NCBI GenBank assembly: GCA_963666215.2
Contig: CAXWPL010000002.1
Span: 640,001 to 704,000, forward strand
Source of the DNA: Acidobacteriota bacterium
GTDB lineage: Bacteria; Acidobacteriota; UBA890; WLXD01
Direction of reading: 5' to 3'
DNA length: 64,000 nucleotides
Under the pieces are notes generated by a model, which had not been told where the DNA came from, did no database searches, and saw nothing but the letters and a program-made list of their open reading frames with translations. Positions 10,500-41,713 of the stretch are shown here, in pieces. The position numbers were made by a program, and so were the translations under genes. Each line of letters begins with the position of its first letter. Positions within the stretch are counted from its first letter, which is position 1.

Positions 10500-10566
10500 A
10501 CGGGACGTGCCGCTATTGTTACGACCGGGGAGGTGGGACAGTGGGCGGCGCGTCCCGTATTTTTTT
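10500..10566 (+). terminator. Long GC hairpin plus T7 run; possible 3' end of a small RNA (~10443-10566)
   Basis: acgggacgtgccgc (10500-10513) pairs with gcggcgcgtcccgt (10545-10558), followed by attttttt. Confidence 0.6.
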
Positions 10567-10606
10567 GTCCGCAGGTCGGCCATCTCCGCTGACCACGCGA
10601 GCTCCG

Positions 10607-19800: not shown

Positions 19801-20009
19801 GCGCCCTCCTAGCCTTCCTGAACAACCTCAGCAAGCTCGTGCGAGCCAACTCGGTCGGCGACGGTACAGAATGCGCGAGCGCGATGTTTCTTGCTCGACG
19901 CCGCCGTCGAGAGGAGACTGTCGCAGCCCACCGCCCACGACCGCAAGCCGCGCCGGTGTCACATCGAGGCCCGCCGCAATCCCTAGCTGTCCCGACAACG
20001 GAGACCCAC

Positions 20010-20528: not shown

Positions 20529-20579
20529 GGAACCCGCCTGGCGCCACTCTTTCGGCGTGCGTGCCACCAGAGCCAGCCC

Positions 20580-20638
20580 TACAATCACCTACCGGGGTTG
20601 CCCAGGTGGCGGAACCGGCAGACGCGGCGGACTTAAAA
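20580..20638 (+). repeat. attL: 59-bp direct repeat = -10 box plus 5' half of tRNA-Leu(TAA) through the anticodon loop
   Basis: tacaatcacctaccggggttgcccaggtggcggaaccggcagacgcggcggacttaaaa; 58/59 identical to 36945-37003. Confidence 0.95.
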
Positions 20639-21026
20639 GACTCTGCCCGCCCTTTTCGGGCCTCGCGAGCAACCCCTCTGAACGCCTGTATTTGCGCGCA
20701 GAACCCCTGTCGCGTGGCCTTCTAGGCGTTTCTCTCCGCGCCTCTGTTGGAGAGCCTCAAGTAGCCCAAATGGATGGGTATCTCCTACCCATTTCCCTAC
20801 CCAAGGAGTGGTGCGCGAGGACAGCCAGGCGCGTGGTTCCAGACAAGCGTGTGCGGCGGGTGGCGATAAGACCGCCGCGCGGTTTCGCTCGGCGACGCCG
20901 GTTAGCCACGGATCGTTTAGGACCTGCGGCCGAGATTCTCTTCAGCTACTACGGAATAAGGGCATATCGAAACCAATGATTCTTGATGACAGCCGGCAGC
21001 AACTCGGAGGTGCATCGGCCTAGCAA

Positions 21027-21974
21027 CTAGCTCGCGTCATCTGGTTCGATTCCGAAAGTCGGCCACGTAGGCCAACTCCAAGACTCGCTGGCGGTGACCC
21101 TCGCGCGCCTCTCGTTGTTCCCGCTCTGCTTCGCCAGCCGTTCGTACGACGCTGTGTCTCCGGCCAGCGGCAGGAAGACCAGGTGACGACCGATCTGGAC
21201 CGCCCAGGATCGATGCCACTCGGGCTCATCGACCCTCATGATCCGCCGCTCCGTCAACGGGTACCCCTGAAGGTCAGCGAGGAATGCCGGGATATGCTCA
21301 ACGTCAGGTTCCTCTATCTGCTTTCGGACGATCCCTAACGCCGGATCGAAGATGTAGCCGTAACCTGTGACCGCGAACAGCGCGAGATAACCGGCCCGGA
21401 GCCAGGCGACCCGGGCCGGCTGAGGCTTGTGGGCGTCGCCGACGATGCGGATCCCGAGTCGCTGCTCCTGGAAGCCTCCGCTTCCCAGGAAGTCCCGTAG
21501 GCCGTCAACCGCCCGAGGGTCGTTCGCGTGCTTCGCCGCAGGCGGGAGCCGCAGGTGGATCGTTATCTCGTCGAGCGAAAGAGTGGCAGAGACAGTGTGG
21601 TCGCCGACCTCGATGTGTACGCGGGTAGGCCCCGATTCGGGATCGCGGCCCAAGTTAGCCATATTCTCCCGCTTGAGGGCATGAGCTTCGGTCCGGCTGC
21701 CAGAAGTGTGGTTGCACGGCGCGCAGGTCAAAATAAGCGCTTTGCCGCCGAGGGACTTCGCCGGGACATGCTCAACGGTCAGATCATTGGTCTCGACGGC
21801 CTCGCGGAAGAAGACCTTCGTGCCTGTGTCCTCCTCGCCAAGGCACTGCGGGCAGATGTAGACCGGGGCGTGAACCATCTCCGCGAGTTCCGGGCACACC
21901 AGCGCGAGAGCTTTGGCGCCCCGGTCAAACCAGCGGTGCTTGGTTTCGAGTTTCACGGTCATCGCTCTCGCCAT
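21027..21974 (-). CDS. HNH endonuclease family protein
   Basis: YICPQCL...LTVEHVPAKSLGG...LTCAPCNHTSG (Zn-binding HNH); C-terminal RVAWLRAGYLALF region. Confidence 0.8.
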   Translation of the reverse strand: MARAMTVKLETKHRWFDRGAKALALVCPELAEMVHAPVYICPQCLGEEDTGTKVFFREAVETNDLTVEHVPAKSLGGKALILTCAPCNHTSGSRTEAHALKRENMANLGRDPESGPTRVHIEVGDHTVSATLSLDEITIHLRLPPAAKHANDPRAVDGLRDFLGSGGFQEQRLGIRIVGDAHKPQPARVAWLRAGYLALFAVTGYGYIFDPALGIVRKQIEEPDVEHIPAFLADLQGYPLTERRIMRVDEPEWHRSWAVQIGRHLVFLPLAGDTASYERLAKQSGNNERRARVTASESWSWPTWPTFGIEPDDAS

Positions 21975-22047
21975 CCCGAACACTTGAGTTTCGCATCAGG
22001 ATCGGACGGAGCAAACAGAATCATGGGCTAACGACGACGCCCTGAGG

Positions 22048-22710
22048 TCAGTGTCGCACGACGCGAAGATCGTCCCCACCCGCGAACCGAATTCGGATCT
22101 CAAACTCCTCGCCAGTCACGCTTCGCCCGTACAGGTCAAACTGGACAGGCATCTCTACTTCGTCCCCGACTTGGACTCTCAGTAGTTGAGGGATTTGCTC
22201 CGGGGGGGGGGGGGGGGGGTCAGCTCGTGCGGTAGGCGGGACGGTGACTACCACGCCCATCGGAGTACCTCCGACCCTGAGGTTCCGCGCGGTACCGCCG
22301 TGGTTGTGCAGATACGCCTTGATATGTCGCGTGCCAGCAGATCGATGGGCAAACTCAAGCAACGGTCGAGCCTCTAGCTCGGCCTGTTCTACTTGATTTT
22401 GGGTCGCGGTGGCGAGGCGCCGGGTCGCCGCTGCTAGGTCGGCGGTTTCCACCGCCGTGCGTTCAAGCTCGCGTTGCTGGGACTTGAGCGCGGTCGTGTT
22501 CAACCGCAATTCTTCGCCCTGCTGCATGTAGCCGAGGATGAGCCACAGGAACGCAAGTGGGGCGACGATGCCGGACAAGAAATCGCCCCACTCGTTGAAC
22601 TGGAGCGGTTTATTAGGCGGAGCAACGCAGTAGGCTACAGCCCAAACTGCGAGCCACATCACGGACAGGAATCCGCCTGAGATGGCTCGTTTGCGCTCCA
22701 TCGCGTCCAT
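22048..22710 (-). CDS. Hypothetical 2-TM membrane protein with coiled coil
   Basis: NEWGDFLSGIVAPLAFLWLILGYMQQGEELR motif, of a kind common in prophage/island genes; contains a poly-C (G18 on +) tract. Confidence 0.7.
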   Translation of the reverse strand: MDAMERKRAISGGFLSVMWLAVWAVAYCVAPPNKPLQFNEWGDFLSGIVAPLAFLWLILGYMQQGEELRLNTTALKSQQRELERTAVETADLAAATRRLATATQNQVEQAELEARPLLEFAHRSAGTRHIKAYLHNHGGTARNLRVGGTPMGVVVTVPPTARADPPPPPPEQIPQLLRVQVGDEVEMPVQFDLYGRSVTGEEFEIRIRFAGGDDLRVVRH

Positions 22711-22926
22711 CCGTGTGGCTGGCGACCAAGCCAACCGCGAACCGGTCCGCACTCGTCATCTCGCCCGTAGCTCCCGGTTTGGCGAGGTCGACGTCAAGCC
22801 TACCGAACTTCGGCCTCGCGCCCAACTCCAGGTCGGCTACGGTGGCCAGGCCATGAGCCCAACGTCGTGTCTCCTGCCGCACTGTCTGCTGCGGGCGCGC
22901 CCTGGGGCTGGACGATCTGACGAAGA

Positions 22927-23110
22927 TTATCGAGAGCCGCTATGAAGCCTCGCGGCCGCATCGCGAAGCCGGTCCACGACATCGTCGATTTCGACACCGA
23001 GTTGCTCCGCCTCCAGCGCAAGGCAATCGACAGACTCTCGGATACGCGCTCGCTTTCTCCTTCGCCGATACGCGGCGCGCGCCCAGAGGCGACGCACCCA
23101 GGGCGAGTAG
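22927..23110 (-). pseudogene. GntR/YtrA C-terminal remnant
   Basis: KRARIRESVDCLALEAEQLGVEIDDVVDRLR aligns with KRERLRRAVQRLAREAGQLGVEPTTVLEELR of 23939-24328. Confidence 0.55.
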
Positions 23111-23222
23111 CTGCAGCGGTGGCCACTCGGGCCAGCACCTCCACTGGCGAGAGACACTGCCAGAGGGCACTCTTCCGCATGTTGGTGGACCCACCAAACC
23201 GAACATCAGGAAGAGGTAAGCG

Positions 23223-23900
23223 ATGGACTTGGAGGAGCGAGTCGAGCGCCTGGAGCTGGAGAACCGAAGGCTAAAGCTGGTGGGCCGTGCCACGGTCGCG
23301 GTGCTGATGGGTGTCGTACTGGTGGCGGCGGTGTTGCCACAGGAGATTCCCGACATAGTCGAAGCGCGGGAGTTCCGTGTGATTGACGAGAACGGCATGA
23401 CCCGCGCCCGCATGAGCTCCGACGGCATCAGGTACGCGGACGAGAACGGTGTGCTCCGCGCCTTCATGAACTCCAAAGGGATTACGTACCAGGACGAGAA
23501 CCGCAAGCCCCGCGCCTTCATGAGGACCGACGGCATCGGGTACCAGGACGAGAACGGCACGGCCCGCGCCGCCATGACCTCCGACGCCATCAGGTACGCA
23601 GACGAGAACGGCCAGACCCGCGCCTCCATCGGCGTCGCCGGCTTCGGGTACTTGGACGAGAACGGTGTGCTCCGCGCCGGCGTGATCGCCGCCGGCTTCC
23701 GTTACTTGGACGAGAACGGCCATCTCCGCGCCTTGATGGACTCCGACGGCTTCCAGTACGTGGACGAGAATGGCCATGCTCGCGCCACGCTCGGAACCTC
23801 TGACCTGGTGACGCCGTCGACGAACGCCACAACCCATTACCCCGCTGCGGTCGTGTTGTACGACGCCGAGGGCAAGGCGATCTGGCAAGCACCCCGGTAG
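23223..23900 (+). CDS. Membrane-anchored protein with eight 18-aa DENGxxRA repeats
   Basis: ERLELENRRL, TM helix, 54-bp-period repeats from 23385, C-terminal LYDAEGKAIWQAP. Confidence 0.85.
   Translation: MDLEERVERLELENRRLKLVGRATVAVLMGVVLVAAVLPQEIPDIVEAREFRVIDENGMTRARMSSDGIRYADENGVLRAFMNSKGITYQDENRKPRAFMRTDGIGYQDENGTARAAMTSDAIRYADENGQTRASIGVAGFGYLDENGVLRAGVIAAGFRYLDENGHLRALMDSDGFQYVDENGHARATLGTSDLVTPSTNATTHYPAAVVLYDAEGKAIWQAPR
23385..23790 (+). repeat. 54-bp-period coding tandem repeat (8 units)
   Basis: gacgagaa(c/t) recurs every 54 bp from 23385 to 23763. Confidence 0.95.
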
Positions 23901-23938
23901 TGGTGACCGCACCCGCTCACTTCGCCAGCAGGCTGTCG

Positions 23939-24328
23939 TCACGCCGTTCGATGGCGAAGCGCGCGCCGCAATTCCTCGAGGACGGTGGTCGGCTCGACGC
24001 CAAGCTGGCCCGCTTCGCGGGCCAGGCGTTGGACGGCCCGCCGTAACCGCTCCCGCTTCTCCCGCGCGGCTAGCCTTCGCGGCCCCTCAGCGACGGAACT
24101 CCCGCCACCGCTCCGGGTGACGATCACGCCATCCTCTCGCGACAGGCCGTAGGCTTTCGCCGCAGTGTTTCGGTTGATTCCGAGATCCACCGCGAGCTGA
24201 CGCACCGTCGGCAGGCGGTCGCCGGGACTGAGCACGCCGCTGGCGGCCATCAGTCGGATCTGGTCTACGAGTTGATCGGAGAGCGGAGTGCCGTCGTCTC
24301 GATCGACGCGGAGCAGGTGGTCCGTCAA
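23939..24328 (-). CDS. GntR family transcriptional regulator (YtrA subtype)
   Basis: PLSDQLVDQIR...LSPGDRLPTVRQLAVDLGINRNTAAKAY. Confidence 0.92.
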   Translation of the reverse strand: MTDHLLRVDRDDGTPLSDQLVDQIRLMAASGVLSPGDRLPTVRQLAVDLGINRNTAAKAYGLSREDGVIVTRSGGGSSVAEGPRRLAAREKRERLRRAVQRLAREAGQLGVEPTTVLEELRRALRHRTA

Positions 24329-24810
24329 TTGCCCACCTTCATCCCACCCCCCATCAGGTTTCCTTGAAGACGGACGAGCACCTGAGTCGGTCCGAGCGTG
24401 GCGATGAGGACGGGCTTGCGTCAGGCTCTCTTGTCGGTCTCGAAAACCTGTTGCCGCCCTTGGGCGAGTTCTCGGGAAACATCGTCCTCAAGGACATGCT
24501 CGATCGTTAGCCCCACCCGTTGTAGCGCCACCTCGAGTCCTTGTGGGCATGGCGTTCCAGGGTGTTTGTCGAGTGCATGGAGTTCGGGCGCGTCCCAGGC
24601 GTAGTGCCGGCCTTCGTGGTCGAAGGTGCTCCAACTGGGGGCCAGCTTCGAGAGAGTGTTGTCGAGTTCAGAAACGACTCGATTCCGCTCGGCCTCGATT
24701 AGCACCCTGGGTCGTGAGCGCCTCCGCAACCCACCACCGGGATCTGAGGGAAGAAATGGATCAAGCTGTCGTCACGACCAGCCCGCCCCACCGGCTCTCG
24801 CAGATGTTCC

Positions 24811-25326
24811 CTACGATCGGATGAGCGCAACGGTGCCACATTTCATCTTGCCCTTGTCGGTCTTCAAGGTGACGGTGGCCGTGTCATACACCTTCACCCA
24901 GCCCCAGTCGCCGATGGCCAGCGGAAAGCTCCCACTGGCGAAGTACCCGCCGTGGCCTCCGGTCTTGAAGTCGATTGTCGTGACTTGCTTGCGCGTGACG
25001 AGACCATCTGTGCCCTCGACCTTCACGATAGCCTTGGCTTTGGTGATCTTCTCGTCGTCGAAATCGAAGCTGAGAAACTGGTTTGGGATGGTGCCGCTCC
25101 AGACGTCCGAAGTCTGAAGTTGACCGGGGTTGGGTGTCACCCAGCAGGTCTTCGCAGCGGCAGCAGCCCCCGAAGCCGGGATGCCTGCAAAGGCCATCAG
25201 GAGCGCCAGCAGGCCCGATGCCAGGACGCGGGTGCCTCGCGTGGCCCGGAGAAGGACCACGGCACCGATGCCCACCGACAGGATCTTATTCGTTGTCATT
25301 GTGCGTGCTACGTCCGTGCCGTTCAT
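24811..25326 (-). CDS. Hypothetical secreted protein
   Basis: SD GGAGG before ATG 25326; hydrophobic signal LLALLMAFAGIPASGAAAAA; Lys/Thr-rich domain with two Cys. Confidence 0.6.
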   Translation of the reverse strand: MNGTDVARTMTTNKILSVGIGAVVLLRATRGTRVLASGLLALLMAFAGIPASGAAAAAKTCWVTPNPGQLQTSDVWSGTIPNQFLSFDFDDEKITKAKAIVKVEGTDGLVTRKQVTTIDFKTGGHGGYFASGSFPLAIGDWGWVKVYDTATVTLKTDKGKMKCGTVALIRS

Positions 25327-25518
25327 TGCACGCCTCCACATCTGGTTGCGACGCTGGATGCGCCTTGGTGTCGGGCGCCAGGCAGTAGCGCTCGCCCGTA
25401 TCACGAGGGAGCATCACTCGGGCCGGTCAGATGGTCCTGAAGGATTCCTCCTGAAAGTCTGAAAAGAGCCGGAGAGAGCTCGCAGCGACTCGACTAATGG
25501 CCAAGCACACGAGCGCCC

Positions 25519-25622
25519 TCAGCGTCGCGCCCTGCGCAACTCCTCGAGGACACGCTCCGGCTCGACACCGAGCTGCTCGGCTTCGCGGGCCAGGCGCAGG
25601 CCGGCCCGCCGTAACCACTCCC
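25519..25622 (-). pseudogene. GntR/YtrA C-terminal remnant
   Basis: Translates EWLRRAGLRLAREAEQLGVEPERVLEELRRARR*; shares gcttcgcgggccaggcg and ggcccgccgtaacc with ~24011-24048. Confidence 0.7.
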
Positions 25623-25858
25623 AACGGTGGGACCGACACCAGGTCGCAATTCCGACGCGTCGGTGATTCCCTCCGCGTAGACATCGGGCCTAGCTCTCAG
25701 GCTCCGCGCTGTGGCAGGACCCTTCCGCTCAAGGAGCAGATGAAGGGAGCATCAAGCGCGGGAGCGCCTTGCTCGGTAGGCTACGCTTCCGCCGCCCGGT
25801 GTTTCGGAAGACCCGCTGGAGAAAGAAGCCCCGCAGGAGAGACAATCCCTGCCGAGCC

Positions 25859-26188
25859 CTATGCCGAGGAGTCGTCAAACACCTCTAGCAGGAGGCAGAG
25901 GCCCTCTATCTGCTTAATGCTGTGGTCAACGCGGAGGCGGAGCTCCTTCGCGGTGTAGGTGCGGGGTTGGAGAAAGAAGAGCTGGGCCAGCCGTGCGTCT
26001 TTGGGAAAGCGAAACATCCACTCGCCCCGGACCTTCCCGATCTCGCTGATCTCCCCAATCTCGAAAACGCGGAAGTCCCAGCCCTCGTCGAAGAATTTCA
26101 CCTCCATCCCGCGCAAGCGCGGAAAGGCGAATTCAATGATCTTTCGGGCACTCTCGCTGTTGCTCGAGAGGTCCGCGTGTTGCGACAT
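25859..26188 (-). pseudogene. N-terminal fragment of an APH-like phosphotransferase fused to unrelated sequence
   Basis: FFDEGWDFRVFEI...WMFRFPK matches an APH N-lobe; no catalytic HxD motif follows. Confidence 0.55.
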
Positions 26189-26241
26189 TCAGATCCACTC
26201 CCCGCTGTAGTGCACTGTTTCCCACAGTGCCAACCGACACC

Positions 26242-27678
26242 CTAGAACGGAGCAAACTGCTCCGTCGTGGGCTCGGCTCAGCAGTACCACGGCTCGGTGA
26301 GGTAGGGGATGGTCGCCGCGCTCGGCAGCGACGGTCGGTCGCGGCGCCCGGCTGCTGCTTGTTCGTCCGCTTGCGCTTCTGAGGACGCGAGCCCGTCGTT
26401 GGCGGCACGAGCCAGGCCTTGGATCTCTTGGAAGAGCTCGCCGCGGCCGGTGTCGGCGCTGCGCTCGGCCACCAGAGTCTCGATATCGCGCTGGAGCTGG
26501 TCGACGCGCGGGTCGGGATGCCGCCAGGGGTAGCCGAACAAGGCCGGGTCTTCATTCCCGACGACTTCCTGGATTTCGGGGAGCTCCAGCAGACGCGAGC
26601 GGCGCGGGATCAGTAGGCGGATCGCGAGCTGAATCGGGGCGACGGCGCCGACGAGATCCAGGTCGACGAGCGCATCGAGTAGCTCGAGGTAGCCGTCGAG
26701 CCTCGTCCAGGGGTGGAATGCCACGAAGGTCGGCTGCAGCGGCAGGTCAGCGGCGCGGCACAGCGTTAGGGCGCGCTCGAAGTCGGCGCGCGTGTGGCCC
26801 TTGTCGAGCAGCTCGAGCACGCGGTCGTCGAGCGACTCGACGGCGCTGGTGACCAGAGCGCAGCCGGTGTTGCGCAGCACCGGTAGCAGGTCGGCGTGCT
26901 GCAGCAGGTGCTCGACCTTCATCGTCGCGTCGTAGGTCAGCCGCGGGAATCGCTCATGCAGGGAGCGGACGATGCGGCGGGCGTGACCGGGGCCGTTCAG
27001 GAAGTCGGGGTCGCCGAAGGTGATGTGGGTGGCGCCGGCGGCTACCTGCTGCTCGATGTCGGCGAGCACGACCTCGGAGTCGACGATGCGGAAGCGGCCG
27101 TTGTAGATCGGCACCACGGGGCAGTGACGACAGCGGTGCTTGCAGCCGCGGCTGGCTTCCGTGGCGCCGACGATGCGCTCCTCTCCGGAGGGCAAACACA
27201 GGCGGGCATAGCTCGAAAGCTCGGGGAGGCCGCTGCGATCGGGGACGCGGAAGCTCAATCGGTCGTGGACGATGCGTGGCGCGCTCTGGATGCTGCCGCG
27301 TTTTCTGGAAAGATCCACCGCAAGCTGCTCGAGCTCGGCTTCGAACTCGCCGCCCACAAGCCAGCTCACTCCGAGCTTGGTGAGCTCCTTGGCCGCGACC
27401 GGCGCGTACAGCCCCCAGGCGCAGAGCTCGGCGGTCGGGTTCAGCTCGCGCACGCGAGCGATCACGGCGGTGGCGATGCGGGTGGCGGTGTGCATCGGCA
27501 GGTAAAACCCGACCAGGTCGGCGCTTCGTACGAGATCGTCGTCGAGCTGCTGCAGCGACAGATCGAGACAGTCAACGCGCACCGGCACACTCGCCTGTCG
27601 CAGCCATGCCGCGGGCGATGCCAGCCCGAACGGCTGGCGTCCGAGCTCGTAGGTAGAGATCAGCAGGACGCGCAGCAT
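26242..27678 (-). CDS. CUAEP-tail radical SAM selenoprotein (UGA at 26278-26280 read as Sec)
   Basis: CKHRCRHC (CxxxCxxC); N-terminal ISTYELGRQPFGLASPAAWL; C-terminus PYLTEPWYC-TGA-AEPTTEQFAPF-TAG; hairpin acggagc-agttt-gctccgt just 3' of the UGA. Confidence 0.92.
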
Positions 27679-27712
27679 GGCCCGGAAACGTTGTCTCTGT
27701 TGAAGGAACAGC

Positions 27713-27995
27713 TCATCCCACGGAGTCTGACAGAGTCGGACCCGGTGAATGAGGCAGCCCGTTCCTTGGCGCTAGGCGGCGCTCTGTTTCCGCAGCCACC
27801 CATCTCCGGTACTTCCGTTTCGTCGACCAAGCTGTGATCGGTCGAATACGATCGCCGCGCACGGTGAATGGAACCGTCAGATGGCGACCATCATCGGTGA
27901 TTCCGATGAGCCCGAATCGTTGCTCAGTGCCCGAGTGCTGCAGGTTCTTTTTGCGTCGACGCGCAGACGAAGTCAATCGACTTCGCTAGTGACCT
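27713..27995 (-). pseudogene. BrnT-like toxin fragment
   Basis: HSGTEQRFGLIGITDDGRHLTVPFTVRGDRIRPITAW; N-terminus degenerate; no antitoxin recognised. Confidence 0.65.
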
Positions 27996-28203
27996 CGATC
28001 GGTAGGTGGCGCGGATCAAGCTCCGCGGACGCCTCCTCGACGAATCGGACTAGCGACGGAAAACCAGGCAAGCTGTCGCAGTTGCGGTGGTCCTTCTCGA
28101 AACCGCGGCCGTCGGCGGGTCCCAGCCTCCCGGCAATCACGGCCTGGAGGGAGCCCCGGCGTTAGTGGTGACCGCACCCGCTCACTTCGCCAGCAGTCGG
28201 TCA

Positions 28204-28411
28204 TCACCCCGTTCGATGGCGAAGCGCTCGGCGCATTTCGTCGAGGACGGTGGCCGGCTCGACAGCGAGCAGCTCCGCTTCGCGGGCCAGGCGCTGGACG
28301 GCCCGCCGTAACCGCTCCCGCTTCTCGCTCTCGGTTAGCCTCCGCGGCCCCTCAGCAATGCGACTCCCACCTCCGCTGCGGGTGACGATCAGACCTTCCT
28401 CCCGCAGCAGG
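28204..28411 (-). pseudogene. GntR/YtrA 3' half duplicate
   Basis: LLREEGLIVTRSGGGSRIAEGPRRLTESEKRERLRRAVQRLAREAELLAVEPATVLDEMRRALRHRTG*; adjacent 34 bp (28163-28196) identical to 23898-23931. Confidence 0.85.
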
Positions 28412-28672
28412 CGCTGAGCGCTTCACTATCACGCCGGTTGTCGGCCTTGGCGAGACGCGCTAGTTTCCGGTCAACTCTAGTAAGTCTTGGGTAAGTTTCG
28501 TAGATCAGCGGCACGTCCTGGCTGATTTCAGGTTTTCAGAAGGTTTCCTTCAGGACACTTCGACCGGCCTGAGCGACTCTTCGGACATCATGGATTGCTG
28601 GCTGGCGGTACACCGTGGACCAGCAGGGGACACCTGGAACGAGGAGGTTGTAATGAGCCAACACGGAATCCG

Positions 28673-30079
28673 GGGATGACCCACCGTCCGTTGAACTAAG
28701 GCGACGGTGAAGTGGTTGGGGATTGTTACGCAGTACGGCGCTCCTGCTCAAGGGGAACGTCGACGGCGGTGTTGAGTGCGGCATCGAGCTTGGCGATGTC
28801 GCGGTAGCCACGAACCCTCCGGAACTTGCTCTCGGCCTCGATGAGTGCAGTAACCGCCCATCGAACGATCATGCTCCCGGAGCGCCACCGCTTTACGTTG
28901 CGGCTGACGTGTTTGATCGTCCCGTTCAGGTTCTCGATCGTATTCGTTGAACGTAACGTCCGAAGCAGCGGCCCCTGAACTCGGAGCCGAGTGACGGTGA
29001 GCGTCTCTTGCATTCCTTCTCTGAGCGAGGCCGCTGCACCGGGGTGATCGGTCTCCAGCTCCTTGACCACGGCGTCGAGCTGCTTGGTCGCTGCCGTGGC
29101 CGTCTCCGCCTTCCACGCCTTGCGGATCTTGGCTGCGAACCAGGGCCGGATATGCCCTGGCAGATGCTCCAATACGTTCTTGATCTTGTGGACACGGCAG
29201 CGCTGGATCAGGGCCCACTCGCCGAACGTGTCGCGCACTGCTTTACGGAGGCCCTTGGAGCCATCGATTACCACCAACCGCGCCCGTTCGACGGGCATGC
29301 CGCGCTCGATCAACTGCCGCAGCAGCGACCGGCACACGTGGGAGCTCTCCGTGGTGCCCTCTACGACACCCAGCACATGCTTGACGCCGTCCGCGTCGAT
29401 GCCCATGGCGATCACCAACAAGTGCTTGCCCATGTGCGTGCCGTCGATCACCAGCACCGGCAGGTCCACTTCATTGAGCGGTTGGGCCAGGTACTGCTGC
29501 ACCTGCTTGGCTGTACGCGCTACGAACCGCCGCGACACACTCGAGCGACTCGTTCCCGACGAAGCTCGCCCGTCGTCGAGCCGCTCTAACGAGCGCTCGT
29601 ACTTGCGCGTCGTGACGCCGCACAGGATCTGCTCTACGGCGCGCTCTTCGAGCGGATCTGTTGCCTTGAACCTCTCCCAGTGCGGCAGCGGCAGCTCTTG
29701 GCCATCGACGCTCCGAGCCCGCGGCTTGCGTACCTTGACCCGCCGGCCGCCCATCACCAGCGAGCCCTCGTCGTAGCCGTGTCGGTACGCCCGCCGCTGC
29801 TGTGACCGCGCGTAGCGCTCTCCGCAGAGCTCCGCCCGGTCTTCTTCCAGCAGCGAACCCAACACCCCGAAGCCCGCGTCCATGACCAGCGCTCGTAGAT
29901 CCGATCGCGCCGCTACCACTGCCTCCAGGAGCGGGTTCTCTTGGCGCTCCGCTTTCCTACTTGTCTCTGTTCTGCGACTCTTGCTCATGACGGTGATCCT
30001 CCATGCCAGTGGATTGACCCCGACACACTATCGAGGTCGGATCACCGTCACCCTTTTTCAACGGAGCCTGTGACATCCC
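28673..30079 (-). mobile_element. IS256-family insertion sequence
   Basis: Imperfect terminal inverted repeats gggatgacccaccgtccgttgaa / ttcaacggagcctgtgacatccc; atccgg present on both flanks. Confidence 0.85.
28726..29988 (-). CDS. IS256-family (Mutator-type) transposase
   Basis: LVIDGTH, VVIDGSKGLRKA, IQRCRVHKIKN, LRSTNTIENLN. Confidence 0.95.
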   Translation of the reverse strand: MSKSRRTETSRKAERQENPLLEAVVAARSDLRALVMDAGFGVLGSLLEEDRAELCGERYARSQQRRAYRHGYDEGSLVMGGRRVKVRKPRARSVDGQELPLPHWERFKATDPLEERAVEQILCGVTTRKYERSLERLDDGRASSGTSRSSVSRRFVARTAKQVQQYLAQPLNEVDLPVLVIDGTHMGKHLLVIAMGIDADGVKHVLGVVEGTTESSHVCRSLLRQLIERGMPVERARLVVIDGSKGLRKAVRDTFGEWALIQRCRVHKIKNVLEHLPGHIRPWFAAKIRKAWKAETATAATKQLDAVVKELETDHPGAAASLREGMQETLTVTRLRVQGPLLRTLRSTNTIENLNGTIKHVSRNVKRWRSGSMIVRWAVTALIEAESKFRRVRGYRDIAKLDAALNTAVDVPLEQERRTA

Positions 30080-30489
30080 CATCCGGGCTGACCGCGACGT
30101 CGAACGGGCTCTGCCACACTTCGATGGTCTCCAGCATGTTGGCGGCTGGCGGCACTATGCTATGTTTTGTTGTGTTCGCAGCTCGGCCATCTGTAGTAAC
30201 TCGTGGGCAGAAGCGAGCCCATCGCGCGCTGTATTCCCCAAGCCTGACCAGGTCGGGCTCTCGCTCATAAAGCCGGGTCGCGCGCTGCGTGAATCCTAGC
30301 GCCGCCCAGGCAGCCACGCCACGCCCCGGTGAGGAATGCCTCGGCGAGCGGCCCATACCGCCGCTGTCGCATCCAGCCGCGCCTCTCGAGCAGCGGCCGC
30401 ACCCGTCGCATCTGCGCGCAGGGCTGATGAACCCTCATCGAGCTCTGTGCTCGATCTGCAGCTCTCCTCTCGCCTGCTACGATTCCTCC

Positions 30490-30954
30490 ATGCCCAAAGC
30501 AGGCCAGCTAAAAGAGACGCTGTCCCCGAAGATGCTCGCTCGCGCCTATACGGACCTTGGCGACAATCCGAGCGATCCAATACACCATGCTTTCGCCCGC
30601 CTCATCGCCGACGGCCAGGCCGCCTACAAAGCGTATGGCGCCACGCATCCTGCGGCTTCTCGAGCAACGTGCGAATCACAAGGCGCCGTCTGGACTGCTC
30701 ACCCGAAAATCAGAGCCCTCATAGCTCTTCATGGCACCGGTAGCCGCAACTTGCTCTTGGCAATGGCCCCTGAAGCAGTCAAGACCGTCTTTGAGCTCAT
30801 GACCAACGGCGAGTCTGAGAGAGTCAGGCTCCAAGCTGCCGACTCCATCCTCGACCGTGGTGGCGCCCCTCGTACCAAAGAGCTGGCAGTCTCTCGCGCT
30901 CAGGAGATGTGGGATGACTCCGACGCCCTAGTCATCGATATCACCTCAGAGTGA
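30490..30954 (+). CDS. Terminase small subunit-like protein (tentative)
   Basis: N-terminal HAFARLIADGQAAYKAY..ASRAT..HPKIRALI HTH-like segment and AVKTVFELM..ESERVRLQAADSILDRGG, resembling phage TerS; TGcTACGAT 6 nt upstream suggests a leaderless start. Confidence 0.55.
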   Translation: MPKAGQLKETLSPKMLARAYTDLGDNPSDPIHHAFARLIADGQAAYKAYGATHPAASRATCESQGAVWTAHPKIRALIALHGTGSRNLLLAMAPEAVKTVFELMTNGESERVRLQAADSILDRGGAPRTKELAVSRAQEMWDDSDALVIDITSE

Positions 30955-31954
30955 GCAGGGGCCGGCCGACTTCCTAGTGCGCTACCGCCGCTACACGGGC
31001 CTCTGACGGCTCTCTCTCAGACACGGGCCACACACACGCGCCCGTCAGTCAGTCTCCGGAGACAGCGGCGACCAGGCTCGTACCGCACATGACTCCTCCA
31101 GGCGAGCACACGCACCCATCTTGAAGGGGGTATGGGGCCGTCAGGAGTGCCGCCGGGCAGAAGGAATATTGCCGCATACAGCCCGTAGGCGAATCTCAGG
31201 AATCTGCTGAGGCTGCCAAGCGAGCCAGAATCCCCATGATGGGCTGACCTGCCCGCAAGGCCCCTCGATGGCCATGAGCCTCGGGGCCATCGGGGTCTAT
31301 GCCTTCCTCGAGAAGTGCTGTCTCGAGCAGCTCTCTACGGGACTCCTCCCGGGCCTTCCGGCGTCTTCTGGACTCCTGGAAGCACCCTCGCTCCTGCCGA
31401 CCAGCGTAGTCACCCTTACGCCTGCACTCCTTTGAGCAGTATCGACGCCGTTTGGCGTTCACGCTCCGGATGAGGCGTTCCTCAATGGTCACGTCGCCGC
31501 AAAACTCGCATCGAAGAAGTTGCTTCCCGAGGTTGAAGACAGAATCGATGAGACGGAACAGCCCGAATCCAGATCCGTCGATGATTAACGAGTTCAGCTC
31601 GTCCGCGAGAATTCCCGCCCGCTTCGGATGTGATTCCCGGATCGAATCGTAGCGTCGGACTGCCTCGGCTTGTTGCTCGGCGTACCAGCCCATGTACCGG
31701 AGCTGTTGGTCCGGCGACCTCTCTCTCCATGTGGAGGCCCAAGGCGGAGGCAGGCAGTTCCGGTTCTCGGATGTTGCGATCAAGTGGTCGAAGAGGGTCG
31801 TGACGTCGGCGTGTAGAGCTTCCACCTCCGCGGGCGTCGCGACGTGAGCGGCGAGGAACTTGGGTCTGGTGCGGGAACCCTCTCTGCCAACGTGGGGTGA
31901 GACGATGGAGGTTGGATAATTACTGAGGAAGAGGGCGAGGTCGGAGACACAAGA

Positions 31955-32446
31955 ATGTCGGAGTTGAGCAACAACGGTGCAGGAGACCACGAGGCCACCG
32001 GACGTCCGGTGCAGGGAGCCGGAGGCGACCGAAAGCGGACGTCGCGCGAGCCCGCGGTCCCGGCCCCCGACCCCCAGTTGGTCGAGCGATCACGGCGCCG
32101 CAAGTTCACCGCCGAGTACAAGGTCCGGGTGGTGCGCGAGGCGGACGGGTGCTCGAAGCCCGGCGAGGTCGGCGCGCTGCTGCGGCGCGAGGGGCTGTAC
32201 TCGTCGCATCTGTCGGTGTGGCGCAAGCAGCGTGACGCCGGGGCATTGGTGGCGCTGGCTAAGCTACGCGGCCGGCCGGCGCCCGATCCCCGAGACGCGC
32301 AGCTTGCCAACCTGCGTCGCCGAGCCGAGCGGGCCGAGGCGGAGCTCGAGAAGGCACGGCGAGTAATCGAGGTGCAGGGAAACGTCTCCGCGCTTCTGGG
32401 AGAGCTGCTCGAGCCCAGGGGCGCCAACGCGACTACCAAGCGATGA
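31955..32446 (+). CDS. IS3-family transposase OrfA
   Basis: RRKFTAEYKVRVV...GALLRREGLYSSHLSVWRKQ HTH plus leucine zipper. Confidence 0.92.
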   Translation: MSELSNNGAGDHEATGRPVQGAGGDRKRTSREPAVPAPDPQLVERSRRRKFTAEYKVRVVREADGCSKPGEVGALLRREGLYSSHLSVWRKQRDAGALVALAKLRGRPAPDPRDAQLANLRRRAERAEAELEKARRVIEVQGNVSALLGELLEPRGANATTKR

Positions 32447-33447
32447 TCGAGCAGACCGTCGAACAACTCACTCCCATCATCGGGACTCGCCCGGCGTGCC
32501 GGACGCTGGGCGCCTCGCACGCGACGATCTACCGCCGCCGTCGGCCGCCTGCGCGCCGACCGAGCCGTCCGCGGCCCAAGCCGGCGAGGGCGCTGTCGGA
32601 GCCTGAACGTCACGAGGTGCTCGCCGAGTTGCATAGTGAGCGCTTCGTCGACTGCGCTCCTGCCCAGGTATGGGCGACGCTGCTGGACGAAGGCCGCTAC
32701 CTGGCATCGGAGCGCACGATGTACCGGATCCTCGCCGCCCAGGGCGAGGGCGGCGAGCGGCGCAACCAGCTCGTGCACCCGCCCTACAACAAGCCCGAGC
32801 TGCTCGCCGAGCGAGTCAATGAGGTGTGGTCGTGGGACATATCCAAACTGCGAGGCCCTGCCAAGTGGACCTACTTCTACCTGTACGTCATCCTCGACGT
32901 GTTCAGCCGCTACGTGGTGGGCTGGACTCTCCAGCACCGCGAGAGCGGTCCCTTGGCCGAGCAGCTCATCGACCAGGCGCTGCTCCAGCAACGCATCGGA
33001 CCTGATCAGCTCACCATCCACGCCGACCGCGGCAGCTCGATGACCTCCAAGCCGGTCGCCTTCCTGCTCGCCGATCTCGGGGTCACCAAGACACACTCGC
33101 GGCCCTACACCTCGTCGGACAATCCCTACTCGGAGGCCCACTTCAGGACGCTCAAGTACCGACCCGAGTTCCCTGCTCGCTTCGAGTCGATCGAACACGC
33201 CCGTCTCTTTTGCCGCATGTTCTTCCACTGGTACAACCACCAGCATCGCCACTCGGGCATCGGCCTGATGACTCCGGCGACGGTGCAGGACGGGCTCGCC
33301 CAGCAGACCCGCGACCGGCGTGCCGAAGTCCTGCTGGCCGCCTACCGGGCGCGACCTGAGCGCTTCGTCAACCACCCGCCCCGACCGCCGGCGATCCCCA
33401 CCGCCGTCTGGATCAACAAGCCTGCCACCCTCGAGAATGCTCACTAA
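32443..33447 (+). CDS. IS3-family transposase OrfB (DDE)
   Basis: WSWDISKL, LDVFSRYVVGW, IHADRGSSM, DNPYSEAHFRTLK, YNHQHRHSGIG. Confidence 0.95.
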   Translation: MIEQTVEQLTPIIGTRPACRTLGASHATIYRRRRPPARRPSRPRPKPARALSEPERHEVLAELHSERFVDCAPAQVWATLLDEGRYLASERTMYRILAAQGEGGERRNQLVHPPYNKPELLAERVNEVWSWDISKLRGPAKWTYFYLYVILDVFSRYVVGWTLQHRESGPLAEQLIDQALLQQRIGPDQLTIHADRGSSMTSKPVAFLLADLGVTKTHSRPYTSSDNPYSEAHFRTLKYRPEFPARFESIEHARLFCRMFFHWYNHQHRHSGIGLMTPATVQDGLAQQTRDRRAEVLLAAYRARPERFVNHPPRPPAIPTAVWINKPATLENAH

Positions 33448-33722
33448 TTACTCGTGACCACCGTCTCATCCGCGTTGACAGGCACCGGAACGCCGGACGA
33501 TGGCTTCGTGACGCACGAAGGCATCGTCCGGAGTGCCGTTTACGAAGGCCAGGAGCTCGGTGACGCCCAGCGCGTTAGTTAGCAGTCGATGTTTCATGTC
33601 ACGAATAGAGTTGAGAATGAGCTAGTCCTTACGTGTCAGCAGGTTAGTGGCAGCGTCGGTAGCGGTCAAGGTACCGTCACCAGGACAGTTCGCCCCCGCA
33701 ACCGCTCCGCAGAGGAGAGCCA

Positions 33723-33926
33723 ATGAACTTCATGCCTGTCCGCCACAAGCGCCTCGAAGAGGGTCTATCCGTGGCTGCAGTCGCCCAGACCGCCAGACGC
33801 TCGATGGGCTGGGTCTACGCGCTCGAGAGGGGCGTGCTCACACCCGGCCGAACGGAGGCGGAAGCCATCGCCCGGCTACTGGATACCGAGATAGATGCCC
33901 TCTTTCCTCGCGTACGCGACGAGTGA
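33723..33926 (+). CDS. XRE/Cro-like HTH protein
   Basis: RLEEGLSVAAVAQ..RSMGWVYALERG..P..EAEAIARLLDTEIDALF; SD GAGGAG. Confidence 0.85.
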   Translation: MNFMPVRHKRLEEGLSVAAVAQTARRSMGWVYALERGVLTPGRTEAEAIARLLDTEIDALFPRVRDE

Positions 33927-34032
33927 ACCCGGTGAGTAATGCCCTCCGCGGCGGAGACTCGTGTCCACCTGAAGCGCAGCGAACGAGACACCGACCAGCG
34001 GCGTGTAGCGCAGCACAAGGACGGCTAGTGAG

Positions 34033-34866
34033 GTGAGCAAGGGCGATCCGAAGGTGTTCATGCCCCTGTACATCGGCGACTACCTGCGCGACACGGGACA
34101 TCTCACGACCGAAGAGCACGGCGCGTACTTGTTGTTGCTCTTCCAGATGTGGGTGCGCCGCGGCAGGCTGCCGAGCTCTCCCACCCGGCTCGCCAATCTG
34201 GCCCGTGTCCCGACCGACCGCTGGGCAGAGGTTTGGGACGGAATCTCGGAGTTCTTCGACGACGACGGCGAGCGGATCTCGCAGCGTCGGCTGACGTGTG
34301 AGCTCGAGATCGCCCGCGACCAGAAACGGCGCCGGCACAGGCAGGCGAAGCGGGCCGCAGACGGACGCTGGAGAAAGTCCCGAGATGATGCCGGTAGCAA
34401 TGCTGCCAGCATGCCGGGAGCATCCTCGGAGCATGCTGGGAGCAATGCAGGAGCATTGCCGGAGCTATGCCCTTCACCTGCACCTTCACCTGCACCTTCA
34501 CCTGCACCTTCACCTGCACCAGACGACGTCGTCGATGTAGCCCGCGCACGCGAGGCTGTTATCGGAGGCGGAGGCCTCGAGGAGGTGGCTGGGGAGTGTG
34601 AGGTGATCGGCGATCTCAACCACCTCGCTGGGACGGAATGGGCGCGCGGCCCAGCAACGCGGTACCTCCGCGAGCGGCTACTCGACGGCTTCACGGTCGA
34701 GCAGTGTTGCCGGGCGCTCAGAGAAGCCCGCGAGCGTGGGATGGACTTACACCCGAAGCGGATTTTCTCGCAATCCGTTTTTCCCGCGCTTCTGGCGCCG
34801 GCGTCGAAGCGCAAGGCAGCCGACCCTGACGGTATCGGCCTCGTCAACGCGGAGTGGATCGGATGA
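34033..34866 (+). CDS. DUF1376/YdaU-type phage replication initiator-like protein
   Basis: FMPLYIGDYLRDTGHLTTEEHGAYLLLL..W...ISQRRL; upstream of a DnaC-like ATPase. Confidence 0.88.
   Translation: MSKGDPKVFMPLYIGDYLRDTGHLTTEEHGAYLLLLFQMWVRRGRLPSSPTRLANLARVPTDRWAEVWDGISEFFDDDGERISQRRLTCELEIARDQKRRRHRQAKRAADGRWRKSRDDAGSNAASMPGASSEHAGSNAGALPELCPSPAPSPAPSPAPSPAPDDVVDVARAREAVIGGGGLEEVAGECEVIGDLNHLAGTEWARGPATRYLRERLLDGFTVEQCCRALREARERGMDLHPKRIFSQSVFPALLAPASKRKAADPDGIGLVNAEWIG
34396..34518 (+). repeat. Iteron-like AGCA(A)TGC x7 at ~11-bp spacing, then (CCTTCACCTGCA)x4
   Basis: Units start at 34396, 34408, 34419, 34430, 34441, 34452 and 34463; exact 12-bp tandem at 34471-34518. Confidence 0.85.
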
Positions 34867-35533
34867 TGCCGACACAGAATTGCGGGAGCTGCTTCGAGGG
34901 CTGGGTCTACGTCGGAGAGAGGCTCGTCGATCGTTGCTCATGTCAGTCTGGGCACAGAATCGACACGCTGCTTGAACACGCAAACATCCGGCTCGATACG
35001 CGGAGGCATCGTTCGACAACTTCGACGGAGGTCGGAACCTCGAGACCGCGGAAGCGCTGAGGGTCTGTCGGGATTTCGCCGACCGGCTCCTCGACGGATC
35101 GGGGGGTGGGCTCCTGCTCGTCGGCCCGCCGGGAACCGGCAAGACCCATCTGGCCGTAGCGACTCTGCGCCGAGTGATCGGCGGGGGCCTGCGAGGAACG
35201 TTCTGGGACACGCAACACTTGCTGGGCTCGGTGAAGGCGACGTTCGGGCCCGAAACGGAGGACAGCGAAACCAAGCTCCTGGCGCCGATCGCCGAGTCCG
35301 AGCTGCTCGTGCTCGACGATCTCGGCAAAGAGCGCGGGACTGATTGGAGCCGGTCGACACTCGGCGCGGTGATCAACGAGCGCTACAACCGGAGCCGACC
35401 GACGGTGATCACTAGCAACTACTCGGCGAGCCTAGCCGAGCACGTCGGTGCGCGGATCGACAGCCGCATCTCCGAGATGTGTGTGGAAGTCCGATTGGCC
35501 GCGGAAGACTACCGAAAGCGCGACCGGCCCTGA
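34863..35533 (+). pseudogene. DnaC/IstB-like AAA+ helicase loader, frameshifted near 34988
   Basis: CGSC..GW..RCSC; after restoring one base ANIPARYAEASFDNF; GLLLVGPPGTGKTHLA; LLVLDDLGKE; INERYNRSRPTVITSN; RIDSRISEM. Confidence 0.88.
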
Positions 35534-35775
35534 TGCACTACCCCGCCCCGCAGCCCAGCGAGCTCGCGGAGGTGGCGCGCCTCTACCCCGACACTGACCA
35601 ACCAATACCTGCGCTCTGGACAGTCACAGAGGTCGCCGAGTTTCTCGGCATCCACCAAAAGACCGTAGAGAAGATGGCTGTGCGCAACGAGATCCCCGGC
35701 CACATGGTCCGCAGCCGCCGAAGGGTCTATCCTCCCGAGATTCTGGCGTGGCTTCTGGAGCAACCCGGAGGGTGA
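35533..35775 (+). CDS. Excisionase-like HTH_17 protein
   Basis: LWTVTEVAEFLGIHQKTV..MAVRNEIP..VRSRRRV...ILAWL; overlaps the integrase start. Confidence 0.85.
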   Translation: MHYPAPQPSELAEVARLYPDTDQPIPALWTVTEVAEFLGIHQKTVEKMAVRNEIPGHMVRSRRRVYPPEILAWLLEQPGG

Positions 35776-36877
35776 CGGTGACGAAGAGCAAGAGGCTGAA
35801 GGGCGTTCACTACCGCAGCGAGCGAGACCGCTGGTTCGCCGAGCGCACCTTCAAGGGATACCGCCATCGAGCCCCTCTGCGCGAGACGCAATGGGAAGCC
35901 TACGAGGACCGCATCGCAATGGACCGTGCCGTGCGCGAGGGCACGTTCATGCAGCTCTACGGCCCGCACCCCATCGCCTCGCTCGAAGAAGCCGTCGTCG
36001 ATTACCTCGAGTGGTGCGCCACTGGCAAGGCAACGCCGAACGCCCCGAAAACGATCCAATGCAAGGGCCGCCACCTACGAACGATCGGCGAGCTACTCAA
36101 CAAGCGGCCCGACCAGATCGTCGAGTTCGATCTGCTGAAGATCCGCAAGTCGCTCCGGCGCCGCATGGCCGGCCCCACGGTCAACCGGCACATGGCCACG
36201 CTGTCGGACATGATGCGCTACCTACGGCGGCACAACGTCATCCTCGCCAGCCCGTGCGTCGGCATCGAGCGCTACCAGGAGACGGAGCAGACCCGCACCG
36301 CACCCAACGACGTCGATGTCGATAGCCTCGTCGCCTCGTGTGGAGCCGCTCCCCTGCCCTGGATGGGCGTGCTCATCACGCTCCTGTTCGACACGGGCGT
36401 GCGCGTCAACGAGGCGCTCAGAGCCAGGCAGGCTGCGTCGACTTCTCATGGGGTCCGCACGGCCTGATCCATCCACCGCCCAGCAAGCGCGGCCGGGACA
36501 TCGGGATCCCGCTGCTGCCCCGTCTACGCGCCGTGCTCGAGCAGCATCTCAGCAAGACTCCAGGCCCGTACCTGTTCCCGCACCCCGATGACGCCGGACG
36601 ACCGTGTGACTACAACCGGGTTCGGCGGAGCTGGTGCAAGGTCCGAGAGGCGGCGGGCCTTCCGGGGCTCTGGATCCACGACCTGAGAGCCGGCGCAGCA
36701 ACGGAGCTCGGCGCCGCCGGGGCAGGCTCGATCGAGGTGCAGACCTTCCTCCGCCAGAAGACGCCTTGGGCCACGCCCAGATACACGCGAACCGAGGGAA
36801 AACACCTCCTGGCAGCCATCGAAAGGCGACACCAGGCGCCATCGATTACGCATATTCGGGGCGCGAAAAAGAAGTGA
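35772..36877 (+). pseudogene. Tyrosine recombinase/integrase, frameshifted near 36430
   Basis: TVNRHMATLS, DTGVRVNEAL; second frame SKRGR..IPL, YLFP, WIHDLR, FLRQKT..TPRYT. Confidence 0.9.
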
Positions 36878-36944
36878 TTCGCTACCCAAATCGCTACCCG
36901 TCTTTCGCTGAGATCGGCGGCGAACGCGGCGCAAGACGCGCCGT

Positions 36945-37003
36945 TACAATCACCTACTGGGGTTGCCCAGGTGGCGGAACCGGCAGACGCGGCGGACTTA
37001 AAA
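36945..37003 (+). repeat. attR: 59-bp direct repeat
   Basis: Matches 20580-20638 with one mismatch. Confidence 0.95.
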
Positions 37004-37046
37004 TCCGCTTCCCTCGGGAGTGCGAGTTCAAGTCTCGCCCTGGGCA
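36965..37046 (+). tRNA. tRNA-Leu (anticodon TAA), CCA not encoded
   Basis: Acceptor gcccagg/cctgggc; anticodon arm gcgga-cttaaaa-tccgc; long variable arm ttccc-tc-gggag; T-arm gcgag-ttcaagt-ctcgc. Confidence 0.97.
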
Positions 37047-37078
37047 CTGGCCGAACGAGCCTTCGACAGGAAGCAGCA

Positions 37079-37890
37079 ATGACCCACGCCGGAGCTTCTA
37101 TCGTTCTTTGGCAACCGCGCGCGCGGCATGTCATAGCGACGACTTTGCTACTGATCCTGATGGGCACGGCAGCGGGTGCAATGGCGCAGGCGGCCGGCCC
37201 CATCAATACGGACCGCCCCGGGTTCACCGAGACCGCTCACATCATTGGCGTGGGAACCTTTCAGCTCGAATTCGGGTACACGATCGATCGCGAGGACGGA
37301 TCCACGCTGCACAACGTCGGTGAGGGTGTGTGCGCTACGGCCTGAACGAACGGGTGGAGTTGCGCGTGGGCCTGCCGTCGTACGCCTGGTACCAGGGCCG
37401 CGCCAGCGGCTCGGGCGCGGGTGACCCGTGGCTCGGATTCAAGGTTCGGGTTGTGGACGGAGATCCGGGGATGGGCATCGATCGACCCGACATCGCGGTC
37501 GAAACCTTCTTCACGGTGCCGGCCGGGGGCTCGTTCGGCTCCGACGAGGTCACGCCGAACATCTACTTGATTTACGCATGGAATCTGAGCGAGACGATGG
37601 TGCTGGCGGGTAACGTTTTCTACGCCAACCTGGTTGCCGGTGACGAGCGTTTTTCGCAGTACGTGGCGAGCCTGTCGGTCACACAGGCGTTGAGCTCGGA
37701 GATCGCGGCCTACTACGAGTACTTTCGGTATTTCGGAGACGACTTCGCTTCGCAGCGTAATGTCGTCAACGGCGGTTTGAGCTTCACGCTGACTCCCGAT
37801 TTCGCGGTCGACAGCATCGTCGGCCTCGGCTTTGACGACGCCGACGGTTCCGAGGTGTTCGTGCGCCTCGGCGGCAACGTCCGCTGGTGA
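37079..37890 (+). pseudogene. MetA-pathway-of-phenol-degradation-type outer membrane beta-barrel, frameshifted near 37327
   Basis: INTDRPGFTETAHIIGVGTFQLEFGY, then frame change to RYGLNERVELRV...GDPWLGFK...; C-terminal W. Confidence 0.75.
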
Positions 37891-37918
37891 CTCTGGTAAC
37901 GACGACGGAAGAACGGCC

Positions 37919-41713
<3,795 letters not shown>

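Follow-up and report, generated by a model that had tools for sequence, protein, structure and literature searches.

In a 64,000-nucleotide stretch of DNA from an Acidobacteriota bacterium (contig CAXWPL010000002.1, positions 640,001 to 704,000; hereafter the window), we found a 16.4-kb segment that is very probably a non-conjugative integrative element inserted in a gene for tRNA-Leu(UAA). The attachment site of the free element (attP) would bear the 5' part of its target, and the tRNA gene restored upon integration would be a chimera of element and host DNA.

The anatomy of the locus is directly visible. ARAGORN calls three tRNAs over the 64-kb window, one of which is a tRNA-Leu(taa) at 36965-37047 (+). 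Rfam agrees on this gene (58.1 bits, E-value 1.7e-10), and an Rfam E-value scan of positions 19500-38000 returned nothing beyond it. The window contains two exact copies, and no more, of bases 1-39 of the tRNA (through the anticodon loop CTTAAAA), at 20600-20638 and 36965-37003; in a shuffle control, 0 of 100 shuffles contained any match. Read directly from the sequence, the full direct repeat spans 59 bp (20580-20638 versus 36945-37003) and is identical at 58 of 59 positions. It starts with the hexamer TACAAT, continues through a 14-nt leader into the tRNA 5' half and extends as far as the final anticodon-loop base. The sole mismatch (20593 C versus 36958 T) falls in the leader, 7 nt 5' of the tRNA. 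Beyond this 59-bp block similarity drops, to 82% over a 96-nt extended match. The displaced 5' fragment lies upstream of the tRNA gene at a distance of 16,365 bp, both on the plus strand, and 16,306 bp separate the two repeats. The intact tRNA is located at the integrase end of the element, where the co-oriented integrase reading frames (35748-36877, +) end 87 nt upstream of it. The initial annotation had described both the 59-bp repeat, running from TACAAT to where the anticodon loop ends, and the position of the intact tRNA beside a co-oriented integrase operon; the 58/59 identity, the two exact copies of the 39-mer and the xis-int genes stopping 87 nt short of the tRNA bear this out. The features of the two attachment regions (attL, left; attR, right) are as follows.

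20580..20638, plus strand: attL copy of the repeat, with TACAAT, the 14-nt leader and the displaced tRNA-Leu(UAA) 5' half (20600-20638); ARAGORN calls no tRNA here
20645..20661, minus strand: terminator-like hairpin just inside the element, its T-run reaching the anticodon-loop bases (consensus scan only)
20785..20802, plus strand: P' arm, CTACCC-N6-CTACCC, candidate integrase arm-type site, 147-164 nt inside attL
36882..36899, plus strand: P arm, the other CTACCC-N6-CTACCC pair, 66-83 nt upstream of where the tRNA begins
36945..37003, plus strand: attR copy of the repeat, putatively element-borne: the leader and the 5' half, preceded by the -10-like TACAAT (read from the sequence)
36965..37047, plus strand: intact tRNA-Leu(UAA) (ARAGORN, Rfam), a putative chimera of an element 5' half and a host 3' half from 37004

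The element ends in a tightly packed plus-strand operon, the first recognizable gene of which encodes a DUF1376 protein and the last of which is int. These genes and the two host genes that flank the element are listed below; open reading frames are abbreviated ORFs.

20010..20528, plus strand: host gene on the left flank (172 aa), without a family; identical to database protein P0001 (100% identity)
34033..34866, plus strand: DUF1376/primosomal-protein-like replication gene (PF07120, E 2.9e-17; phrog_3992, E 1.5e-24)
34863..35533, plus strand: DnaC-like helicase loader (phrog_50, E 1.2e-27; PRK08116, E 4.2e-40, from profile position 78)
35479..35775, plus strand: excisionase-type helix-turn-helix protein, xis (PF12728, E 2e-9; TIGR01764 'excise', 41.2 bits for a cut-off of 28.8)
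35748..36877, plus strand: tyrosine integrase, int, in two frames (35748-36467 and 36338-36877; PF00589 on the C-terminal ORF)
37079..37890, plus strand: host gene on the right flank, split over two frames, for a Phenol_MetA_deg-type outer-membrane protein (near-identical to P0160, 99%)

A Pfam scan of 21 element ORFs revealed no relaxase, coupling protein or type IV secretion gene, and a PHROGs scan of 19 proteins revealed no capsid or tail family, with one weak match to a small terminase (E 1.5e-6). The lack of virion structural genes and of relaxase and secretion genes argues that the element is neither a complete prophage nor an integrative and conjugative element (ICE).

We propose the following scenario. 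The element would bring its own replication module together with excisionase and tyrosine integrase genes, and no phage structural genes. Its attP would hold the 5' part of the target, from the -10-like hexamer through the 14-nt leader to base 39 of the tRNA. The anticodon loop is a catalogued crossover location and marks the end of the identity block; strand exchange is therefore likely to take place within the loop. The tRNA gene at attR would thus be composed of element DNA through the anticodon loop, including everything upstream, followed by the host 3' half, and the native promoter region and 5' half would have been left 16.4 kb away at attL. We infer both the crossover point and the assignment of each copy to host or element from the comparison of the two repeats. 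The mature tRNA sequence would be unchanged by integration, and on this ground simple restoration of an essential gene is to be expected, not regulation. Known tRNA-targeting elements have an identity block that starts at the crossover site and reaches whichever gene end has to be restored; the window shows the mirror image, with a block that ends at the anticodon loop and extends upstream through the leader and the -10-like hexamer.

Candidate arm sites

The paired motif CTACCC-N6-CTACCC is found as an exact pair exactly twice in 64 kb, once inside each repeat, and both pairs lie within 165 nt of the repeats. The number expected is 0.004-0.017 for exact pairs, and 0.11 when up to one mismatch is allowed. 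A third, inverted CTACCC-type copy (6/7 match) is present near the P' arm, at 20775-20781. The two pairs are probable arm-type sites for the integrase: in the excised circle, the two would lie on either side of the core, at distances usual for arm sites. A consensus scan called 2 terminator-like sites around attL, both on the minus strand, for 0.7 expected. Folding of the int-tRNA spacer and of the P' arm is no better than that of shuffles (z-scores from -1.36 to +0.79), and, inspected by eye, the P' side of the core displays no convincing dyad symmetry.

The integrase clade and related loci

The C-terminal integrase ORF of the window matches PF00589 with 29.7 bits for a cut-off of 27.1. Database protein P0009, which is 99% identical to the window integrase, matches phrog_1 'integrase' (E 3.8e-34), and NCBIfam returned only Xer-type matches to the integrase, weak and far under the cut-offs. 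A profile search of 1.84 billion representative proteins, at a threshold of E <= 1e-30, delineates a clade of 10 representatives, three of them already in the query set or encoded by the window itself. R, K, H-x-x-R and Y have catalytic roles in tyrosine recombinases, and the corresponding R216, K250, H314, R317 and Y349 (numbering of clade member P0010) are invariant in 10/10 aligned members; the two integrase ORFs of the window together carry all five. The late His/Trp position is occupied by Gln in the window, P0009 and P0013, and by Asp in P0010. When the integrase was compared by tblastn with phage and plasmid collections, one weak match was obtained in each, at 29.6% and 25.7% identity. 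By these searches, the clade appears very small and rare, with no close relative in phage or plasmid records.

We then used the clade alignment to scan genomes. Seven stretches fit the pattern and four were confirmed (L001 to L004). Among these four, only L001 is informative on orientation. This locus, from an Acidobacteriota metagenome-assembled genome, comprises an excisionase-like gene, an integrase and then a tRNA-Leu(taa) at 10928-11011, all co-oriented. Its integrase is 38% identical to P0010 and 36-42% identical to the window integrase ORFs (blastp), and lacks about 55 residues present in aligned relatives. The anticodon arm of its tRNA is identical to that of the window tRNA, and a CTACCC pair is found at 10836-10853, 75-92 nt upstream of the tRNA gene; TACAAT is not conserved in its P arm. 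As far as sequence comparison goes, L001 is an independent second case of the reversed layout, in the nearest relative of the window element. We also observed that its integrase ORF, for want of a stop codon, continues through the tRNA-Leu gene (9893-11017), and that the last ~30 residues of database protein P0013 are the translated L001 tRNA gene.

L002, from the same assembly as L001, has in common with the window two backbone ORFs and xis; it also has a truncated integrase, and the DNA examined contains no tRNA. Here the integrase (9974-11443) is cut right after the His of H-x-x-R and fused in frame to PD40 (TolB-like) repeats, a fusion seen again in database protein P0019. No tRNA was found in the DNA examined around L003 either. 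L004 (23% identity) has the classical order, with two tRNA-Met genes followed by int.

Relation to known tRNA-targeting systems

Restoration of the 5' part of a tRNA gene had been presented in the initial annotation as the minority solution, which proved right: in the available part of the Islander paper, Table 1 gives 159 islands with a 5' fragment versus 3760 with a 3' fragment, out of 3919 (PMC4383910). Anticodon-centered sites account for 2083 of these 3919 islands (same source, same part). Another source, also available in part, describes 5'-distal recombination as considerably less frequent, with Zhao and Williams 2002 among the works cited (PMC6563490); the available part of a preprint on Klebsiella tRNA genes (tDNAs) makes no mention of 5'-type sites (10.1101/2020.11.02.365908). 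Set against the Islander definition, as given in the part of that paper at hand (PMC4383910), the window shows an intact tDNA together with a cognate end fragment in the same orientation, exact over 39 nt; the 5' fragment is upstream of the tDNA; a tyrosine integrase lies inside, its frame interrupted here, and the length falls in the 2-200 kb range. In the same part of that paper, the 5'-fragment islands of Islander resemble the window in having an intact tRNA, an upstream direct 5' fragment, an internal tyrosine integrase and an anticodon-centered att site. The window differs from them by its integrase, which comes from a very small clade and whose best phage and plasmid matches are 26-30% identical. 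The locus thus belongs to an already known minority class and shows no new mechanism. It is of value as a clean, precisely bounded member of a class that makes up about 4% of Islander. It also has candidate arm sites and a distantly related counterpart at this tRNA, the lineage being poorly sampled, and it supplies a predicted attP/attB pair for a rare integrase clade.

Two further comparisons concern the junction between int and the tRNA gene. In ICEKp1, which shows state-dependent promoter switching according to the part of the source available (PMC13023037), the target tRNA gene and int are transcriptionally coupled across the att junction, and it is the host tRNA-Asn promoter that drives the int of a 3'-type ICE. 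The window is a mirror image of that arrangement: the int operon is upstream of the tRNA, and any putative coupling would run from the element to the tRNA. As to integrase ORFs that overlap attP, their existence is noted in the available part of the Islander paper (PMC4383910). The L001 ORF, which runs through the tRNA, resembles this Mx8 or SSV type, unlike the window int, which stops 87 nt before the tRNA; the read-through in L001 may be due simply to a lost stop codon.

Points against the element, and frameshifts around attR

Several observations weigh against the interpretation of the locus as an integrative element that provides a working promoter and 5' half. No empty site, attP or attB junction was seen, and the tRNA 39-mer had 0 matches in 185,579 species genomes, a collection without this genome or a close relative. 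The GC profile does not distinguish the element from its host flanks. The int-then-tRNA layout is found in only 1 of 4 related loci, L001, and the 10 kb upstream of L001 contains no copy of the 5' half, no second motif pair and no left end; the genes there look metabolic. A sigma-70 consensus scan called 0 promoters at either copy of the repeat, with no recognizable -35 at either. Finally, three genes are out of frame in the assembly as it stands: int, the DnaC-like gene and the right host gene.

In another possible history, the element would be a decaying, immobilized relic: the frameshifts in int and in the DnaC-like gene would be real, and the chimeric tRNA would be fixed in the chromosome. 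The integrase frame, a detail missing from the initial annotation, is interrupted: compared with P0009, a base is absent between 36435 and 36436, and the frame runs into a stop 10 codons on. The open frame of the DnaC-like gene, 34976-35533, has a Walker A motif and no start codon, which probably reflects a -1 frameshift near 34989. Transposases of the IS256 and IS3 families are present inside the element, and relatives also look degraded, with the L001 integrase short by about 55 residues and running through the tRNA, and with the PD40 fusion of L002. The damage, however, also affects the host gene at 37079-37890: relative to P0160, which is 99% identical, one base is absent between 37330 and 37331. 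The N-terminal pieces of the DnaC-like and MetA_deg genes have no NCBIfam match, and other long host genes of the window have end-to-end family matches and intact frames. Furthermore, near-identical copies from other assemblies break elsewhere: P0160 has a continuous frame at the break of the window but is itself interrupted at a place where the window reads on, P0161 has additional, different breaks, and P0009 lacks the first 66 residues. Single-base breaks at different positions in near-identical copies fit assembly errors better than shared decay, and the 1-nt deletion in the integrase is possibly such an error. The repeat and both arm-site pairs are intact. We consider decay a possible history, though a rather doubtful one.

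The three single-base -1 frameshifts (34989, 36435 and 37330) are clustered within 2.4 kb around attR. This suggests a poor local consensus at attR, perhaps due to strain heterogeneity at the element junction. P0009 and P0160 are each listed with a longest contig of 325,927 bp, which suggests a sister genome with the same insertion.

Transcription of the restored tRNA gene

The initial annotation also held that the tRNA is now transcribed from a promoter borne by the element, downstream of the int operon. The upstream DNA, the TACAAT and the co-oriented int operon are indeed there; the promoter itself is not recovered, given that no promoter was called and no -35 was found. Evidence for a promoter role of TACAAT comes from its likeness to a -10 hexamer, located 14 nt 5' of tRNA-Leu, and we infer such a role from this likeness alone. 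A local yardstick is provided by the tRNA-Gly gene of the window, which is preceded by a sigma-70-like TTGCCT-18-TATGCT, 13 nt 5' of the gene. This tRNA-Gly(gcc) stands in tandem with a tRNA-Cys(gca) at 60759-61090 (-), behind that promoter-like sequence.

An alternative is that TACAAT is not an independent promoter and that the tRNA is cut out of a longer transcript that reads through from upstream and would originate from the gene at 20010-20528 in the empty site and from the xis-int operon in the occupied site. Both of these genes are co-oriented with the tRNA sequence and close to it, ending 71 nt and 87 nt before it, and the empty promoter scan at both copies and the L001 P arm, with no TACAAT at the matching place, are what this alternative would predict. 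A terminator scan of 35600-37200 found no terminator-like site between int and the tRNA; together with a spacer that folds like shuffles, this makes read-through from int possible. A 7-bp GC hairpin right before TACAAT at attR points the other way, within a spacer whose overall fold is like that of shuffles (z-score -1.25). Also against read-through, a 5/6 match to TATAAT is unlikely to arise by chance in DNA of 64% GC at a distance from the gene similar to that of tRNA-Gly (14 versus 13 nt), and the identity block begins exactly at TACAAT. On balance, we judge it unlikely that the tRNA depends on read-through.

The rare UUA codon and the idea of translational control

Streptomyces genomes are GC-rich, with few TTA codons, and their bldA gene encodes a tRNA-Leu whose anticodon is UAA. 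The window resembles this case in having a tRNA-Leu(UAA), GC-rich DNA and rare TTA codons. The initial annotation accordingly envisaged that the element could influence translation of TTA-containing genes. In such a scheme, the element would own the promoter of the putative sole UUA decoder and would tune the translation of TTA genes in the manner of bldA. UUA had been taken for a rare codon, and it is: TTA makes up 8 of 1273 leucine codons in 29 host ORFs, 6 of 413 in 18 element ORFs, and 14 of all 17,274 codons examined. The DNA upstream of the working tRNA gene would be element DNA, and only 46-63 nt separate the -10-like hexamer from the CTACCC pair upstream of it, so that integrase bound there could in principle affect the hexamer.

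Control by bldA, however, depends on the confinement of TTA to dispensable regulatory genes and on regulated accumulation of the tRNA. In the window, by contrast, TTA is spread over 7 of 29 host ORFs of ordinary function, including amidohydrolase, acyl-ligase and peptidase genes (two of the sites are near uncertain start codons), which suggests that the tRNA is probably needed constitutively and is not a developmental switch. The xis, int and DnaC-like ORFs are TTA-free. A comparison of TTA counts in element and host genes, proposed at the outset, gave no significant enrichment in the element (Fisher p 0.12). The -10-like hexamer, the leader (one mismatch) and the tRNA 5' half supplied by the element are the same as in the displaced native copy, with 58 of 59 positions matching and the same mature sequence. 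A bldA-like control is thus highly improbable. The suggestion that the element is protected against imprecise loss fares no better, as this would be true of every tRNA-restoring element.

We may also imagine a wider scheme: a small, possibly Acidobacteriota-centered integrase clade would be dedicated to the 5' side of tRNA-Leu(UAA) and would control the whole region upstream of the putative sole UUA decoder, with integrase bound at the CTACCC pair, or xis-int read-through, coupling tRNA supply to the state of the element. We find this very unlikely, and any translational control proposed for the locus is speculation. What the locus does offer is a natural case in which the element, and not the host, provides the upstream region of an essential tRNA gene.

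That the repeat should be a local duplication or a chance similarity, unrelated to site-specific recombination, can practically be dismissed: no match arises in 100 shuffles, the block ends at a catalogued crossover site in the anticodon loop, xis and int are adjacent, pairs of arm-type motifs are present at both ends of the element, and the layout is kept in L001.

Cargo of the element and neighboring genes

The remaining genes of the element comprise a cargo region (21027..29988), two backbone ORFs and an insertion sequence (IS).

21027-21983, minus strand: HNH-like ORF
22048-22752, minus strand: phrog_9267 ORF
23223-23900, plus strand: ORF with 18-aa tandem repeats
23939-24328, minus strand: GntR regulator
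26278-27678, minus strand: CUAEP-tail radical SAM selenoprotein (putative)
28726-29988, minus strand: IS256/Mutator-family transposase (Pfam)
30289-30954 (plus strand) and 31196-31990 (minus strand): two backbone ORFs of unknown function, common to the related element L002 (blastp)
31955..33447, plus strand: IS3-family transposase, orfA and orfB, an IS within the element (HTH_Tnp_1, rve)

In blastp, the two backbone ORFs match those of L002 with identities of 37% (E 1.5e-19) and 23% (E 1.3e-6). The radical SAM gene (26218-27678, -) matches the NCBIfam family 'CUAEP/CCAEP-tail radical SAM (seleno)protein' with 576 bits for a cut-off of 500. Its ORF stops at a TGA. When this codon is read as selenocysteine (Sec), the tail becomes ...YC-U-AEPTTEQFAPF, and a TAG follows 12 codons later. 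A hairpin GGAGC-AGTTT-GCTCC located ~17 nt past the TGA may be a selenocysteine insertion sequence (SECIS) element, in which case this would be a selenoprotein gene on a mobile element.

Two other cargo genes contain repeated sequences. The ORF at 23223-23900, with no family matched and a GC content at third codon positions (GC3) of 0.87, includes seven tandem 54-bp units (18 aa) at 23331-23840. A segment of ~250 nt over the start of the GntR gene (23895-24147) recurs at 28160-28412 with 86% identity over 253 nt, and a third copy of 101 nt is found at 25522-25622. These copies could represent a duplicated regulator or operator region.

Outside the element, the left flank protein P0001 has only six other homologues, at 35-59% identity. 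It has no Pfam or NCBIfam matches, and the Protein Atlas places it in unnamed clusters of mixed taxa. Further to the right, an IS1595-family transposase (45120-45995) is followed by 2 kb of lower GC content (0.56-0.57 versus ~0.64). In this stretch (45120-48000), a GC3-based pass chose only one ORF, of 63 aa (47293-47484), and a TonB-dependent receptor gene follows. In line with the phylum of the L001 relative, a hint to the host phylum comes from a PadR regulator and an ADOP-family duplicated permease (TIGR03434, 773.8 bits) at 41771-44808 (-), a pairing typical of Acidobacteriota.

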